This document shows positions 3,798-30,561 of a stretch of DNA of 64,000 nt, in pieces. Position 1 is the stretch's first letter; the number at the start of each line of letters is the position of its first letter. Both the position numbers and the translations under genes were made by a program. Origin of the DNA: Acidimicrobiia bacterium. GTDB lineage: Bacteria; Actinomycetota; Acidimicrobiia; Spongiisociales; ZC4RG35. The stretch covers positions 22,070 through 86,069 of the forward strand of contig JBEVJN010000065.1 in the NCBI GenBank assembly GCA_040510135.1. Reading direction: 5' to 3'. Under the pieces are notes generated by a model, which did no database searches, was not told the origin of the DNA, and worked only from the letters and a program-made list of their open reading frames with translations.

Positions 3798-4625
3798 CTA
3801 GCCGGGCGTCCCGTCGTGCTTCTCCTTGGCGAGCTGCTGTTGTTGCCATTCGTACACGCCGGGCAGCCAATCCTTGCCGAACGTGGCCGATGGGCCGATG
3901 CGCGGGTCATGGGGAGCATTGCCGTCGCGCAAGGCATGCACGTACGCTCGATCCTGTTTGATCCGTGCGCGTACCTGATCAGCCCCGCCGACGGACCCGT
4001 GACCGGGGATGAGAACATCAACGTCGTCCGCAACGCCCTCGAGCAGCCGCAGCCCGACGAGGTAGTCCTCAATCGGATTCGCGGCGTCCAGGTCGGGGAA
4101 CGGAATCAGGATGTCAGAAAGCATGTCACCGGCGACGAGAACGCCGCTCTCCTCGATCAACAGCGCCGCATGGCCCTGGGCATGCGCCGGATGCTCGATA
4201 ATCCGGACTTCAGGGCCATCCCAAGGAATCTGTGCAGTTTCGACAGGCAGACCGGTAATGAGGCCGAACAGGTCCAGTGGTATCTCCTCGGCGATTTCCG
4301 GCGGCAACATCTCGGCGACGCGGGCCTTCCAGTCCGCGTTCGACAGCAGGTCTCGCATCCAAGCCGCGCAGCGGGCGGTACCGTAACGGGGCGCTTCGCC
4401 AAGTTCGGCGTGCCAGAGCACGTGATCCCAATCAGGATGCGTCGAGAAGCCTGCCGAAACGGGCTGGCCCAACTCGCGAAGGTCGTTCGCTAGGCAGGCC
4501 ATTTCATCACCCTGGATTCCGGGGTCGATGAGCAACACACCGGCCCGGCCTTGCACGACAACGGCGTTGTTCTGGAGTAACTCGCTCTGGTGGATTAGCA
4601 CACCATCCGCGACCTGCTTCAGCAT
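3798..4625 (-). CDS. MBL-fold metallo-hydrolase
   Basis: 275-aa ORF with beta-lactamase-fold metal motifs (STHPDWDHV, HPAHAQGH, IPGHGS). Confidence 0.8.
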   Translation of the reverse strand: MLKQVADGVLIHQSELLQNNAVVVQGRAGVLLIDPGIQGDEMACLANDLRELGQPVSAGFSTHPDWDHVLWHAELGEAPRYGTARCAAWMRDLLSNADWKARVAEMLPPEIAEEIPLDLFGLITGLPVETAQIPWDGPEVRIIEHPAHAQGHAALLIEESGVLVAGDMLSDILIPFPDLDAANPIEDYLVGLRLLEGVADDVDVLIPGHGSVGGADQVRARIKQDRAYVHALRDGNAPHDPRIGPSATFGKDWLPGVYEWQQQQLAKEKHDGTPG

Positions 4626-26770: not shown

Positions 26771-28513
26771 ATGACACCGACCAACCGGCCGGTCATGACG
26801 CCGCGCTTTCGCATTGCGGTGCTGCTGGCCGTCGTGGTCGCCACTGCGCTCGGCGTTGTCGCCGAGTACGGGGCTTGGTCTGCCGTCGCCCCTGGCGCGG
26901 GGTACCGGCTGGCTGCCTATGCCGTCGTCGGCCTCACCGCCACTTTTCAATTGATCCGTCACCGTCGCATCGAGGCTGTCGTAGCCACGGCTGCGCTGAC
27001 GCTCTGTGCCCTCAGTCTGACCGAGGCGTGGAGAACGACCGGGTTCGACAGCGGTTACACACTCGCCTGTCTGATCCTCATATCGGTGGTCTATGTGGCT
27101 ACACGTGAGGGAAAGTCAGTGATTCCGCTGGTGCTGGTCTCCGGGCTGACCGCGGCCTTTACGATCGCGTCCCTGATCCTCGAGAAACCCCTGGCTTCCG
27201 TCGCCTTCGCCCGCCTCATGATCGGCATTCCGGGGCAGGCGTTGGTCATCTGGATCACCTGGCAGCTGATCCAGTCCCTCGCCGAGGCCTCCGAGCATCA
27301 GGCCAACACGGCGCGCATACAGAAGGCTCTTGCCACCTGCTCCCAGGCCTTGCTCACCGGTCGTGACGAGCAGCCGTTGACAGCCGCGCTCCAAGCCCTC
27401 CTCGACGCGACGGAGGCGGACTATGCCTATATCGACATCAACCGGGTGGCCGAGGACGGCAACGTCACGTGGGAGATCGTGGCCGAGGCCCTGGGGGACA
27501 ACGTCGCCTCGGGGCCGGATACCTTCGATGAGGGCGACTACAGCCAGTTCCCGCAGATCATCGAGGTCCTCTCCGCGGGCCGGCCGGCACGGATCCGGGT
27601 GCGCGACCTGCCCATGCCGGTGCGAGAGCGCTACGAGGCGGAGGGAATTCGCTCGGAGCTGATGGCCCCGATCATGATCCGGGACCAATGGGTGGGGACA
27701 TTGGGCTACTCCGACTTCTGGCGGGACGATGTTTGGACCGAGGTCGAGGTCGAAGGGCTGATGCGGGCAGCAGACATGGTTGGGGCGTATTGGGAGAGGG
27801 AGTCGGCGCGTGAGGGTCTGGAGGAGTTAGCCGAGGCCAAGGACCGATTCATCGCCACGGTAAGCCATGAGCTCCGCACTCCGCTGGCCGCAGTCGTTGG
27901 CTTCTCAGGTGAGTTGGCCGATGGCATCGGGGCGTACACACCCGAGGAGATTGGCGAGATGGTCGTGTTGATCTCGAGTCAGAGCCAGGAGGTTGCCCAA
28001 CTGGTCGACGATCTGCTCACGGCGGAGCGAGCGGCGTCCGGAAACCTGACCATCAGCCCCCGTTCCATCGACCTCCTCGATGAGTGCCGGTCGATCGTCG
28101 ACTCCCTTGGAGTCGATCTCGACGTAGTGATCGTCGGAGACTCGTCGACCGCATGGGCCGACACGTTGCGAACCCGGCAGATAGTCCGGAATCTGCTCAC
28201 CAACGCCCATCGCTACGGAGGGAAGACGGTGCGCGTCGAGGTCTCCAGCCACAGGAACCTGGCCTCGCTGGTGGTCAGCGACGACGGGCCCGGCGTCAGG
28301 GGCATCGACGCCGAGCACATCTTCGACCCCTACTACCGCTCGCAGTCGTCGTCGGACGCCAGACCGGACTCGGTCGGTCTCGGGCTGGCGGTTGCCCGAC
28401 AACTGGCGCGGATGATGGGTGGAGACCTCGTCTACCGGCGCCGCGGTGGGTGGACCCGCTTCGAACTGAGCCTCCCGAATGGCCCCGACCAGGCTGCCTC
28501 GATGGCCGGCTGA
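26771..28513 (+). CDS. Membrane sensor histidine kinase with GAF domain (no adjacent response regulator)
   Basis: Has about 5 N-terminal TM helices and a GAF-like middle region. The H-box is VSHELRTPLAAV. The HATPase motifs are NLLTNAHRYGG, DDGPGV and GLGLAVARQL. Confidence 0.85.
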   Translation: MTPTNRPVMTPRFRIAVLLAVVVATALGVVAEYGAWSAVAPGAGYRLAAYAVVGLTATFQLIRHRRIEAVVATAALTLCALSLTEAWRTTGFDSGYTLACLILISVVYVATREGKSVIPLVLVSGLTAAFTIASLILEKPLASVAFARLMIGIPGQALVIWITWQLIQSLAEASEHQANTARIQKALATCSQALLTGRDEQPLTAALQALLDATEADYAYIDINRVAEDGNVTWEIVAEALGDNVASGPDTFDEGDYSQFPQIIEVLSAGRPARIRVRDLPMPVRERYEAEGIRSELMAPIMIRDQWVGTLGYSDFWRDDVWTEVEVEGLMRAADMVGAYWERESAREGLEELAEAKDRFIATVSHELRTPLAAVVGFSGELADGIGAYTPEEIGEMVVLISSQSQEVAQLVDDLLTAERAASGNLTISPRSIDLLDECRSIVDSLGVDLDVVIVGDSSTAWADTLRTRQIVRNLLTNAHRYGGKTVRVEVSSHRNLASLVVSDDGPGVRGIDAEHIFDPYYRSQSSSDARPDSVGLGLAVARQLARMMGGDLVYRRRGGWTRFELSLPNGPDQAASMAG

Positions 28514-28518
28514 TCACA

Positions 28519-29031
28519 TCAGACGAACAACTGAACGTCCGCGTCGGCGGCGAAGTCGAGAAACGCCGCAGCACCGGCGATCTCGCACCCTTTGATCAAG
28601 TCTCCCTCCTGCACGCCCATCACACCCATCGTCGTCGAGCAGGCGAAGAAGCGGACGTCGAGACCCTGGGCCATCTCGATGAACTCGGGGACGGTGGGCA
28701 TCCGGGCGTCGCTCATCCATTTCTTCATGATCTTGGTTGCAGCGGCCGTCGCCCCCGGGAGCGCGCCGAGCAGGTTGGGCAGCTGGATCGGGCCCGCCGG
28801 GTTGGCCAACGACGCAACCTTGAGGCTCTCCAGCCGGTCGTTGTGGATGATGTCGAGGCCGTAGAAGGTGAAGTACACCCCGGCCTCCCAACCCAGGCTC
28901 GCCGCCGTCGTGGCCAGGATCAAAGGCGGATACGCCTGGTCGAGCGTCCCTTTGGAGGCGACCAGGGCGATGCGGCGGCGGCGCTGCTCCTGTCCGATAC
29001 CTGGTCCAGATTCGGTGAGCGTGTCGGTCAT
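28519..29031 (-). CDS. DsrE/DsrF-like sulfur-relay family protein
   Basis: 170 aa. IALVASKGTLDQAYPPLILATTAASLGWEAGVYFTFYGLDII and ...FFACSTTMGVMG are typical of DsrE-like proteins. ATGA overlap with tusA. Confidence 0.75.
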   Translation of the reverse strand: MTDTLTESGPGIGQEQRRRRIALVASKGTLDQAYPPLILATTAASLGWEAGVYFTFYGLDIIHNDRLESLKVASLANPAGPIQLPNLLGALPGATAAATKIMKKWMSDARMPTVPEFIEMAQGLDVRFFACSTTMGVMGVQEGDLIKGCEIAGAAAFLDFAADADVQLFV

Positions 29032-29294
29032 GGCCGCGCCGCCTTCTCGATCCAGAACAACTGACGTGACTCCTCGCGCTCGACCCCCAGCAAGATGTTG
29101 CCGGTCTGCCTGGCCAGGGCCGGGATGTCCTCCAGCGCTCCCGGGTCAGTGGTGATCAATTTGAGCACCTGTCCGGGCGAGAGTTGGCCAAGAGCGAGCG
29201 AAGCTTGATAGACCGGTAGAGGGCAGAGGACACCCGAGCAGTCGAGCTCTGCATCGACGCGCTCTTCTATCACCTTGGCGTACTGGCTGGTCAT
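29028..29294 (-). CDS. tusA: TusA-like sulfurtransferase
   Basis: 88 aa with LDCSGVLCPLPVYQASLAL, which contains the CPxP active-site motif. The RBS is GAAAGAAGGAG. Confidence 0.85.
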   Translation of the reverse strand: MTSQYAKVIEERVDAELDCSGVLCPLPVYQASLALGQLSPGQVLKLITTDPGALEDIPALARQTGNILLGVEREESRQLFWIEKAARP

Positions 29295-29330
29295 GGCTCG
29301 TCTCCTTCTTTCGTCCGGAGGGGCCCCATG

Positions 29331-29364
29331 ACGAAAAAGGCCCGCATCCGGTGCCGGTGCGGGC
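29331..29364 (-). terminator. Intrinsic terminator inside the tusA leader
   Basis: Minus strand reads GCCCGCA-CCGGCACCGGA-TGCGGGC followed by CUUUUUCGU. It ends about 35 nt before the tusA start codon. Confidence 0.65.
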
Positions 29365-29399
29365 TCTGTGTGTCTGTCTCTTGCTGGCTCAGGACATCA

Positions 29400-29468
29400 C
29401 TACCCACACGGCACGGCCGCACAGCGACAAGCGCAGCAGCGGATCGGGCTGGTGGGTGGGCATGTCAT
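29400..29468 (-). CDS. Candidate polycysteine leader peptide (22 aa: MTCPPTSPIRCCACRCAAVPCG)
   Basis: The ATG lies 10 nt downstream of a TACCAT -10 box. Six of the 22 codons are Cys. The ORF stops 35 nt before the leader terminator. It is too short for coding statistics. Confidence 0.4.
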   Translation of the reverse strand: MTCPPTSPIRCCACRCAAVPCG

Positions 29469-29478
29469 GTCGGCGAGG

Positions 29479-29506
29479 ATGGTAGGCGTTCAGGGCCGCG
29501 GGTCAA
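29479..29506 (-). promoter_or_regulatory. Candidate promoter of the tusA-dsrE leader
   Basis: Minus strand reads TTGACC (29506-29501), 16 nt, then TACCAT (29484-29479). Confidence 0.45.
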
Positions 29507-29536
29507 GACCGGGACGCCCGTATTGGAGGAGTTGCG

Positions 29537-29603
29537 GGGCCAGTGGAGCATTTGAGGAGGAGAAGGAGTCCGCTGAAGAAGCGGAAACTGGCTCCACTGG
29601 CCC
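29537..29603. other. Long perfect hairpin with nested stem-loop (terminator of the upstream gene or small structured RNA)
   Basis: GGGCCAGTGGAGC (29537-29549) pairs with GCTCCACTGGCCC (29591-29603), 13 bp perfect. The inner hairpin is TCCGCT-GAAGA-AGCGGA (29569-29585). On the minus strand the interior contains CUCCUUCUCCUCCUC. Confidence 0.5.
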
Positions 29604-29631
29604 TCGCAAATCGTGAGGAGGGAAAACAGCT

Positions 29632-29647
29632 TGTGATTCTGTTCACA
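29632..29647. promoter_or_regulatory. CRP/GlxR-type binding site (perfect TGTGA-N6-TCACA)
   Basis: TGTGATTCTGTTCACA lies in an AT-rich patch, 67 nt downstream of the stop of the gene ending at 29714 and upstream of the hairpin and tusA leader. Confidence 0.5.
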
Positions 29648-29713
29648 AATCGAGAACGTCTTCAGTCGCCGTTTATTCCCGTCACCTCCACGGCTCGACC
29701 ACAGGCAACCCGA

Positions 29714-30451
29714 TCAGCTGCTGAACGTGACCGAGAAGGCGGGCGCCCATCGAGAGACGACACGGCCGTAATTCTCCCCAGCCGTCATCATGTCGCCATC
29801 CGCGAGGGCCTCGATAGAGCGTCGCACCAGCTCGACCGAATCATCGAACACCAGCTCCTGCGGGGCGAACAGGTCGGACACGGTCGAGTAGTCGAGCTCG
29901 AGCATCGACTCACCGGGAAAGCTGTCGATCCAATCCGATAGCTGGGCGAGCTCCTCGGCGGGCCCCTGAAATACCTGGAGGCCCCGGAGCACCCCGAGAG
30001 CATGGTCGACCCGCTTCCGCCCGACGGCGAGATCGACACGCAACCGGATCCTCGGAGTGCCTTCGACCTCGTAAACCTCCTTGTCCTCTGGCTGGAAGGC
30101 GGTGAACCAGCGGACCGGGACATGCCAGGCGGAGGTCAGGACATGAGAGCGATGACCCGGGTGTTCCTGGTGATATCGGCGAAGCTCGCTGTCGGCGGCC
30201 CGGGCTGCCTCCTCGGGAATCAGACCGGCCCCAAGCCCACGAAACGCGTTCGCGAATGCAACGGTCGACTCGAGGACTCGAAGACGGAGATTTCGTGGGC
30301 ACACCATTCGCTGCCCATTCCACTCGACCACCCAATCGGCATCACCTTCGGACTCGGACAGCAAGCCATAGGCCCGAACGAATCCAGGCACAGGGTCGCC
30401 ATCCTCAGAGCTCTCCGGGGTGTAGACCCGGAGATGGGCGGTCTTGGTCAC
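29714..30451 (-). CDS. Conserved-looking hypothetical protein
   Basis: 245-aa ORF with coding-like composition. No motif recognised. Confidence 0.6.
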   Translation of the reverse strand: MTKTAHLRVYTPESSEDGDPVPGFVRAYGLLSESEGDADWVVEWNGQRMVCPRNLRLRVLESTVAFANAFRGLGAGLIPEEAARAADSELRRYHQEHPGHRSHVLTSAWHVPVRWFTAFQPEDKEVYEVEGTPRIRLRVDLAVGRKRVDHALGVLRGLQVFQGPAEELAQLSDWIDSFPGESMLELDYSTVSDLFAPQELVFDDSVELVRRSIEALADGDMMTAGENYGRVVSRWAPAFSVTFSS

Positions 30452-30561
30452 TCGCCAATGGTGGCATAGCTCGGCCCCACCGTCACACAGGCCGGGCCAG
30501 GGGCGTCCAGGTAAGATCGGCCGCGGAGTGAGAACCGCCCATCGAGAAGGGAGGACCGGAC

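Follow-up and report, generated by a model that had tools for sequence, protein, structure and literature searches.

In mycobacteria, the leaderless poly-cysteine short open reading frame (sORF) Ms5788A acts on translation through masking of a Shine-Dalgarno (SD) sequence, with the mechanism elsewhere left open (Canestrari et al. 2020, bioRxiv 10.1101/834739). Cysteine leader peptides have also been predicted upstream of actinobacterial cys operons, with no conserved terminator hairpin and with Rho-dependent termination suggested (Seliverstov et al. 2005, PMC1262725), and a 2021 survey by the Breaker laboratory (PMC8632094) includes uORFC-8-2, an upstream open reading frame (uORF) with two Cys codons and an intrinsic terminator, predicted upstream of cysS in Rhodobacterales. 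The element described here lies in a 64-kb stretch of DNA from an Acidimicrobiia bacterium (GenBank assembly GCA_040510135.1, contig JBEVJN010000065.1), called the window below, upstream of the sulfur-carrier genes tusA and dsrE2. Given the elements of its sequence and how well they are conserved, the constraint on coding, the complementarity and geometry of its strands, and its operon contexts, this leader is quite probably a cysteine-sensing leader-peptide (ribosome-mediated) transcription attenuator that senses charged tRNA-Cys.

In the proposed mechanism, transcription would start a few nucleotides (nt) ahead of the AUG at 29468 and the sORF would be translated at once. With ample cysteine, the lead ribosome would pass the Cys codons and reach the stop at 29402-29400, masking the strand CCGUGCCGUGUGGGU (29416-29402); the hairpin at 29364-29340 with its U-tract would then form, and RNA polymerase would terminate 36 nt ahead of tusA. 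When Cys-tRNA is scarce, the ribosome would stall at Cys11, Cys12 or Cys14 and leave the CCGUGCCGUGUGGGU strand free to pair with the 5' arm of the hairpin, and this antiterminator would allow read-through into tusA-dsrE2. The operon is most likely turned on at cysteine shortage. The cysteine response itself, the transcription start, the translation of the sORF and the termination event are what we infer from these features.

A cysteine-sensing attenuator ahead of tusA-dsrE was the core idea of an initial annotation of this DNA, and it draws strong support from conservation, codon selection, complementarity and linkage to a CysM-like gene. That annotation also knew of no earlier description of a Cys-rich sORF joined to a canonical terminator and to sulfur-carrier genes; with uORFC-8-2 already predicted, the pairing is less unprecedented than assumed there.

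Leader elements and their conservation in Acidimicrobiia

Leader elements and the tusA-dsrE2 genes all lie on the minus strand of the window (Table 1). The promoter TTGACC-N16-TACCAT, present as initially annotated, is the only sigma-70-like match in a scan of 28400-30500, where 0.2 would be expected, and both of its hexamers are kept across a 25-locus leader alignment. The sORF begins without an SD sequence, its AUG standing 10 nt past the -10 box, and carries the 22 codons and six Cys codons first noted, at positions 3, 11, 12, 14, 16 and 21, so that Cys11 and Cys12 are consecutive Cys codons in the first open reading frame (ORF) of the operon mRNA. Among 428 six-frame sORFs of 12-45 amino acids (aa) in the window, whose mean Cys fraction is 2.8%, it is the sole one with at least six Cys or with at least four Cys in six residues, and neither the 64-kb window nor the 3-kb flanks to each side of loci L001-L057 yielded a further Cys-rich sORF. 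An overlapping ORF, MPTHQPDPLLRLSLCGRAVWVVMS (29463-29389), was dropped because its ATG is absent in most orthologues.

The GC-rich hairpin and U-tract at 29364-29331 are likewise present as described; the 11-nt loop contributes three extra pairs, and the folding energy is -18.9 kcal/mol. The built-in terminator scan, with a loop limit of 8 nt, is blind to an 11-nt loop, and this hairpin was folded by hand. Counting both strands, the window, at 64.7% GC, has only seven runs of at least five T, and just one of them, the leader U-tract, follows a strong hairpin. By this count, few genes of this organism seem to end in a canonical hairpin-plus-U-tract terminator, and the strict conservation of such terminators in the leaders is the more striking for it. 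The tusA ATG at 29294 lies 36 nt past the U-tract, in agreement with the roughly 35 nt first given, and the gap from hairpin to start codon is 23-49 nt across loci, which leaves no space for a separate promoter of the downstream gene. An Rfam search of 28900-29900 at E<=10 returned meaningless matches only. The leader elements are improbable by chance.

A protein search with DsrE2 yielded 57 loci, nearly all from metagenome-assembled genomes of Acidimicrobiia. The combination of a Cys-rich sORF and a hairpin, which the initial annotation had named as something to look for in related loci, is widely conserved: the full layout of promoter, near-leaderless poly-Cys sORF, hairpin with U-tract and gene is present in 51 genome loci and at least 34 metagenome loci of Acidimicrobiia, at least 85 in all. 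In about 25 loci, which make up the window clade, tusA is 67-98% identical and the leader can be aligned base for base; conserved in this alignment are the -35 and -10 hexamers, the sORF start and Cys codons together with its nine final codons, and the hairpin with its U-rich tail. Every sORF indel in it measures 3 or 6 nt, and the Cys codons stay while the N-terminal half and the inter-cysteine residues vary. In three loci the sORF starts with GTG instead of ATG, exactly 7 nt past the -10 box, a distance that fits leaderless initiation. At synonymous codons, the third position has an identity of 0.93-0.94 over the last nine codons of the sORF versus 0.55-0.61 in tusA from the same genome pairs, in keeping with an RNA-level constraint on the strand complementary to the terminator arm. 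Judged from these patterns, the sORF reading frame and its Cys codons are under selection.

Between clades, peptide length, Cys number and Cys spacing differ freely (CCCCC, CxCxCxC, CCCxC), and a peptide ending in C-A-A-V/A-P-C-G is common to different clades. The sORF holds 4-8 Cys in 19-34 codons in 51 of 51 loci, and equally universal are the hairpin, whose folding energy ranges from -15.5 to -22 kcal/mol, and a tail rich in U, with at least five T in the 10 nt past the stem (median 7); a TANNNT box ends 7-11 nt ahead of the sORF start in 50 of the 51. Since the predicted start would leave a leader of 0-4 nt, the likeness to leaderless sORFs drawn in the initial annotation holds in the weaker form of a near-leaderless, not demonstrably leaderless, mRNA. 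Clades differ freely in the loop and upper stem of the hairpin but keep its stem, the U-tail and the complementary strand upstream.

In distant loci another gene stands directly ahead of tusA, and the poly-Cys sORF is found in front of that gene, some 1.1 kb before tusA (for example, peptides MNLARTSCACLCACVCAAVPCGEETA, MSPIAAVVCCCCCRFRVRPGEVTC, MKTYPTTCACCCTTVSCGKVRI and MITDTRPMSSCCCCCCHPAGAERKRVVI). There, an ACCCGC...GCGGGU hairpin and a strong U-tract come 24-41 nt past the sORF, followed by an SD sequence and the start codon. In one locus, L013, tusA itself is directly preceded by a diverged Cys sORF and hairpin of its own. The sORF peptides of this leader family are missing from a collection of 15 billion proteins and were never called as genes, which marks an annotation gap.

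Predicted antiterminator pairing and switch

At the sORF 3' end, the strand CCGUGCCGUGUGGGU can form 15 bp with the 5' arm and loop of the terminator, at -24.2 kcal/mol. Mutually exclusive folds had been proposed in the initial annotation, and folding does predict them, as antiterminator against terminator; the strand involved, however, is 29416-29402, adjacent to the proposed UGUGCGGCC, which as partner of the 5' arm gives 6 bp and -10.8 kcal/mol only and is taken up by a local hairpin in the consensus. The upstream sequence that pairs best with the 5' arm falls inside the sORF in every one of the 51 loci, immediately 3' of the Cys run; counted from the stop, it occupies -16 to +1 in the window clade and mostly -25 to -10 in loci of the cysM type. 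In each locus at least two Cys codons sit at least 13 nt upstream of the antiterminator strand. In the window, the distances from Cys11, Cys12, Cys14 and Cys16 to this strand are 21, 18, 12 and 6 nt. The codons GUG CCG UGY GGG form the complement of CCCGCAC-CGGCAC, so the conserved ending ...V-P-C-G would be explained at the RNA level, because its codons complement the terminator 5' arm.

Compared with dinucleotide shuffles, the duplex of arm and partner has a median z of -2.4 and reaches p<=0.05 in 39 of the 51 loci. In an alignment of 38 distinct sequences from all clades, built for covariation testing, the lower stem of the terminator is 95.5% paired versus 26-44% in slid registers, and an A-U to G-C covariation at the base of this stem exceeds all 500 shuffles; the antiterminator cells are paired in register at 80% versus 32-46% when slid. 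Cognate pairs of arm and partner bind better than non-cognate ones, by a modest amount (permutation p=0.004), and their co-variation is clear in L032, L051, L013, L021, L044, L055, L030 and L031, the first six of which carry compensatory variants.

Minimum free energy (MFE) folds with a ribosome at Cys11 or Cys12 form the antiterminator, which is lost with the ribosome at Cys16 or beyond and at the stop. Scanned over all ribosome positions, the window leader forms the antiterminator with A-site codons 1-17, and from about codon 17-18 to the stop it has a free 5' arm or the terminator. A clean switch of this kind appears in equilibrium scans of closer relatives only.

Several points weigh against an attenuator working in this way. 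The antiterminator shows no covariation above shuffles in the 38-sequence alignment, its columns being near-invariant, so its support is conserved complementarity, not compensatory change. Co-variation of arm and partner is absent in L020, L023, L041 and L053, and in 12 of the 51 loci the duplex is no better than shuffles at p<=0.05, with L020, L023 and L053 poor. The folds contain no 1:2 anti-antiterminator helix, and the hairpin at 29436-29417 does not compete with the antiterminator strand. At equilibrium the untranslated window RNA prefers the antiterminator (P(terminator)=0.05), from which it follows that termination would need the sORF 3' end to be occupied by a ribosome at the time the 3' arm emerges. 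Equilibrium folds of L004, L005, L020, L023 and several cysM-type loci favour the terminator wherever the ribosome is placed, and a switch in these most divergent loci would have to be kinetic. The U-tract of the window clade is interrupted (CUUUUUCGU in the window, CUUUGUCGUUC in relatives). The 10 nt between -10 box and AUG predict a 3-4-nt leader, and efficient initiation of the leaderless type is assumed. Stalls at Cys16 or Cys21 would, according to the folds, favour termination, so not all Cys codons can be sensors. The AUG-UCC-UGA and GGGCCC-CUCCGGAC blocks of the window clade, finally, are left unexplained by the attenuator model.

Table 1. Features of the leader and of the genes that follow it, in window coordinates
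Feature	Position	Strand	Details
Promoter-like site	29506-29479	minus	-35 TTGACC 29506-29501; 16-nt spacer; -10 TACCAT 29484-29479
Leader sORF	29468-29400	minus	ATG 29468-29466; 22 codons, MTCPPTSPIRCCACRCAAVPCG; stop TAG 29402-29400
Putative regulatory Cys codon cluster	29438-29421	minus	Cys11 29438-36; Cys12 29435-33; Cys14 29429-27; Cys16 29423-21
Small hairpin in Cys-codon region	29436-29417	minus	CUGCGC 29436-29431 with GUGCGG 29422-29417
Predicted antiterminator 5' strand CCGUGCCGUGUGGGU	29416-29402	minus	Codons 18 (part) to 22 plus U of stop; pairs with 29364-29348
Mini-ORF AUG-UCC-UGA	29397-29389	minus	5 nt past sORF stop; invariant in window clade
Terminator hairpin	29364-29340	minus	GCCCGCA-CCG-GCAC-CGG-A-UGCGGGC; arms 29364-29358 and 29346-29340
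U-rich tail	29339-29331	minus	CTTTTTCGT (as RNA element CUUUUUCGU), directly 3' of terminator stem
Block GGGGCCCCUCCGGAC	29327-29313	minus	Between U-tract and tusA SD; window clade only
tusA with SD	29307-29028	minus	SD AAGGAG 29307-29302; tusA 29294-29028, 88 aa, CPLP motif
dsrE2-family gene	29031-28519	minus	170 aa; 4-nt overlap with tusA stop

Putative regulated genes and a codon-swapped sister leader

The tusA product scores 66.8 bits against PF01206 (cut-off 28.6), with the Cys-Pro-x-Pro active-site motif carried by LCPLP, and stays below the E. coli-type NCBIfam TusA equivalog (40.6 versus a cut-off of 78). The dsrE2-family product reaches 140.9 bits against PF13686 (cut-off 25) and 144 bits against the NF047629 DsrE2 model, under its cut-off of 210. 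A GAF-HisKA-HATPase sensor histidine kinase of 580 aa, encoded at 26771-28513 on the plus strand, converges on dsrE2 with the two stops 6 nt apart, and the attenuated operon would consequently comprise tusA and dsrE2 only.

In most relatives the leader is followed by a CysM-like cysteine synthase gene and then by tusA-dsrE2; the window clade is without a synthase gene at the leader position and has kept the leader. The intervening gene of the distant loci belongs to PF00291, the cysteine synthase family, scoring 250 bits for cysKM (TIGR01136), 239 for cysM and 226 for cysK among the NCBIfam models, all below trusted cut-offs, and its nearest solved structures are those of CysM (E ~1e-53). The leader is tied to cysteine biosynthesis by this gene, which comes first among the regulated genes of most relatives. 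That the regulated genes serve cysteine synthesis holds for the CysM-like loci and would extend by their example to tusA-dsrE2 alone, as in the window. Since the same leader governs the CysM-like synthase and tusA-dsrE2 in most relatives, TusA/DsrE2 appear to form part of a cysteine-biosynthetic sulfur-supply module, a biochemical role that we infer from the shared control.

TusA/DsrE2 carriers are mostly discussed for dissimilatory sulfur oxidation, and CysM is the isozyme that uses thiosulfate. TusA-family proteins participate in thiosulfate uptake for assimilation (YeeD, PMC11073785), and thiosulfonate can be carried by DsrE/TusA proteins (PMC4175335). Literature searches returned no link of TusA/DsrE2 to a cysteine synthase operon or to actinobacterial cysteine biosynthesis, and searches for Acidimicrobiia leader peptides found none. 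With YeeD, thiosulfonate-carrying DsrE/TusA proteins and a thiosulfate-using CysM all known, a role of TusA/DsrE2 in assimilatory sulfur supply is plausible, and their placement under a putative cysteine-starvation signal beside a CysM-like enzyme suggests the same.

A metagenome scan with the pattern CCGTGYGG-N25-55-CCCGCACC-N6-30-GCGGGYYTT matched at least 120 loci, and a Cys-rich sORF is present at no fewer than 34 of them. Among the matches listed, Cys-sORF loci with enough DNA all lead into tusA-dsrE2, into cysM-like-tusA-dsrE2, or into a cysM-like gene alone or on a truncated contig, and about half of the 120 matches listed have no sORF and look like chance matches. No wider poly-Cys regulon emerged, poly-Cys leaders standing only before cysM-like and/or tusA-dsrE2 genes among the matches listed, a negative biased by a pattern derived from the same family. 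In the metagenome loci L103 and L159, the leader MSSYTALSCCCCCCGATVVPCGEVNA is followed by a cysM-like gene alone, with no tusA or dsrE2 in the 2.7-4.5 kb downstream; the leader thus travels with either half of the module.

At least five metagenome matches carry a sister leader (L088:4914-5050; L102, minus strand of the locus, 4243-4380; L168:6367-6500; L100:2582-2710; L111:2222-2350). Its peptides, MFENRAFAMMCSAPQEPCGRDV or VRNVTSTRMMCMAPYEPCGLVV, carry Met-Met-Cys(-Met) in place of the Cys run of the window, at codons 9-12, and the chassis is shared: the promoter spacing, the 22-codon sORF, the ...E-P-C-G strand CCGUGCGG, and the hairpin CCCGCACCGG with its U-tract. The gene that follows encodes a MetY-type O-acetylhomoserine/O-acetylserine sulfhydrylase (TIGR01326, 624-652 bits versus a cut-off of 495), and the sister leader is a candidate Met/Cys-sensing attenuator. 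Sensor codons re-coded to suit the regulated pathway are what a leader-peptide model predicts, and a micropeptide or protein-binding model predicts no such thing. The methionine-codon leader therefore offers a natural control that would otherwise need engineering.

A broader proposal is tentative, and we regard it as rather doubtful in its entirety: that TusA/DsrE2 of Acidimicrobiia have a previously unrecognised assimilatory role, as carriers from which a CysM-like synthase would receive sulfur in the form of protein-bound persulfide or thiosulfonate, a protein-mediated donor route to cysteine in the manner of CysO-CysM, and that one chassis, re-coded as poly-Cys or Met-Met-Cys, may serve a small regulon in which the ribosome senses sulfur amino acids, with intrinsic terminators of the canonical kind, which are rare in this phylum.

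Alternative explanations and comparison with known systems

Ms5788A, as the closest experimentally studied precedent (bioRxiv 10.1101/834739), invites an explanation by translational attenuation, in which the leader would mask the tusA SD, a stalled ribosome would unmask it and the hairpin would be structural only. The window does contain suitable pairings, in that an anti-SD-like CUCC is conserved 11 nt upstream of the SD and the U-tract can pair with GACGAAAGAAGG beside it. This second contact is the UUUCGUC:GACGAAA pairing of the initial annotation, which can form in the window, at -9.5 kcal/mol, but is not conserved, weakening to -2.9 to -8.1 kcal/mol in orthologues, with shifting registers, and disappearing from consensus folds. 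The Cys tract pairs with the SD in no fold, MFE or consensus, and the SD lies outside any conserved helix in cysM-type loci; masking, moreover, does not need a U-rich tail after a GC hairpin, yet the tail is kept in 51 of 51 loci. Translational attenuation is improbable on these grounds. The same must be said, with somewhat more emphasis, of a functional Cys-rich micropeptide, such as a metal-binding, redox or sulfur-acceptor partner of TusA/DsrE2, with the hairpin ending or stabilising the transcript and no sensing involved. A conserved reading frame, a C-terminal C-A-A-V/A-P-C-G kept across clades and an sORF that always adjoins sulfur-carrier or cysteine-synthase genes are what such a peptide would lead one to expect. 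Its length, Cys number and Cys spacing nevertheless vary freely between clades, the C-terminal codons are conserved at synonymous sites too and spell the complement of the terminator arm, the sister leader swaps the Cys run for Met-Met-Cys ahead of metY, and the downstream genes are without a promoter of their own.

The near-invariance in the window clade of the loop, of the post-stop AUGUCCUGA and of GGGCCC-CUCCGGAC, which the attenuator model does not fully explain, would suit a site at which a protein or a small RNA binds, or else an element that governs RNA processing or stability, formed by the hairpin and its flanking blocks around an incidental Cys ORF. Among clades, however, it is the loops and upper stems that vary and the stem, U-tail and upstream complementary strand that persist; Cys enrichment and a 3-nt indel pattern are unexpected for a non-coding element, and Rfam offers no match. 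Such a site is very hard to credit, and cysteine-sensing transcription attenuation is the reading we prefer.

Other conserved blocks lie in and around the leader. The small hairpin of the Cys-codon region appears in the RNAalifold consensus of 20 leaders and in window MFE folds and is possibly a pause or timing element. The mini-ORF past the sORF stop reads AUG-UAU-UGA in L004 and L005, with start and stop kept and the sense codon changed; in cysM-type loci the sORF itself extends 3-4 codons beyond the antiterminator strand, and it is a speculative thought that the mini-ORF might lengthen ribosome occupancy. Block GGGGCCCCUCCGGAC holds the anti-SD-like CUCC, complementary to the GGAG of the SD, and segments complementary to the terminator 3' arm (GGCCC/GGGCC, UCCGG/CCGGA); in the consensus fold its contact with the SD is a weak 3-bp UCC:GGA only. 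Just upstream of the promoter, a long hairpin of about 18 bp occupies 29609-29532 on the minus strand (UUGCGAGGGCCAGUGGAGC ... GCUCCACUGGCCCCGCAA), with an internal CCGCU/AGCGG hairpin and an invariant anti-SD-like pyrimidine stretch, CUCCUUCUCCUCCUC. It is kept in 23 of the 25 window-clade loci, is absent in L004 and L005 and has no Rfam match; it may act as a terminator without a U-tract for the upstream gene (29714-30451), or be an RNA element in its own right.

Among described systems, the mycobacterial Ms5788A/Rv0815A 'Cys ribulon' shares with the attenuator proposed here the phylum Actinomycetota and an unannotated sORF without SD that stands first on the mRNA of a sulfur/cysteine operon and contains consecutive Cys codons, and the proposed sensor in both is a ribosome pausing for Cys-tRNA. 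Leaderless mRNA is a feature of Ms5788A; in the present family the -10 box ends 10 nt before the start in the window, 7 nt before it in the three orthologues that begin with GTG, and 7-11 nt before it across 50 of the 51 loci. In Ms5788A, however, it is the Cys tract that pairs, with the SD of the following gene, and a terminator is absent, whereas here a GC hairpin and U-tract follow the sORF, and the competing helix is formed by the codons after the Cys run with the terminator arm, the SD not being involved. Operon content differs as well, being cysM-like/tusA/dsrE2 in the present family and Ms5788-cysA2-sseC2 for Ms5788A.

With classical attenuators of the trpL, hisL, leuL, pheL and ilvL type, the leader has in common end-product codons in a leader ORF, an intrinsic terminator before the first structural gene and an antiterminator 5' strand that would be masked by a ribosome reaching the end of the ORF. 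Unlike them, it would sense cysteine, has a predicted (near-)leaderless rather than an SD-led start, has no 1:2 helix that could be found and defaults, as untranslated window RNA, to the antiterminator. The uORFC-8-2 element is likewise a predicted ribosome-mediated attenuator with Cys codons in a uORF and a U-run past the last stem, but it has two tandem Cys codons only, inside the first stem, occurs in Alphaproteobacteria and governs a tRNA synthetase gene; the present leader, compared with it by description and without an Rfam match in the window, has an Acidimicrobiia host and biosynthetic or sulfur-carrier genes (tusA-dsrE2 or cysM-like) under it. The leaders of Seliverstov et al. (2005) resemble it in their Cys-codon runs in short ORFs before cysteine-metabolism genes of Actinobacteria and differ from it in that terminator and antiterminator are both present and conserved here.

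The mechanism is unsurprising in principle, and the family is large, unannotated and cleanly testable. Earlier cysteine cases come without a complete conserved terminator and antiterminator, and the present family supplies a widely conserved complete version that can be tested directly. Judged by sequence, it joins the SD-less poly-Cys sORF of actinobacteria to the complete classical pair of terminator and antiterminator, over a cysM-like/tusA/dsrE2 module.

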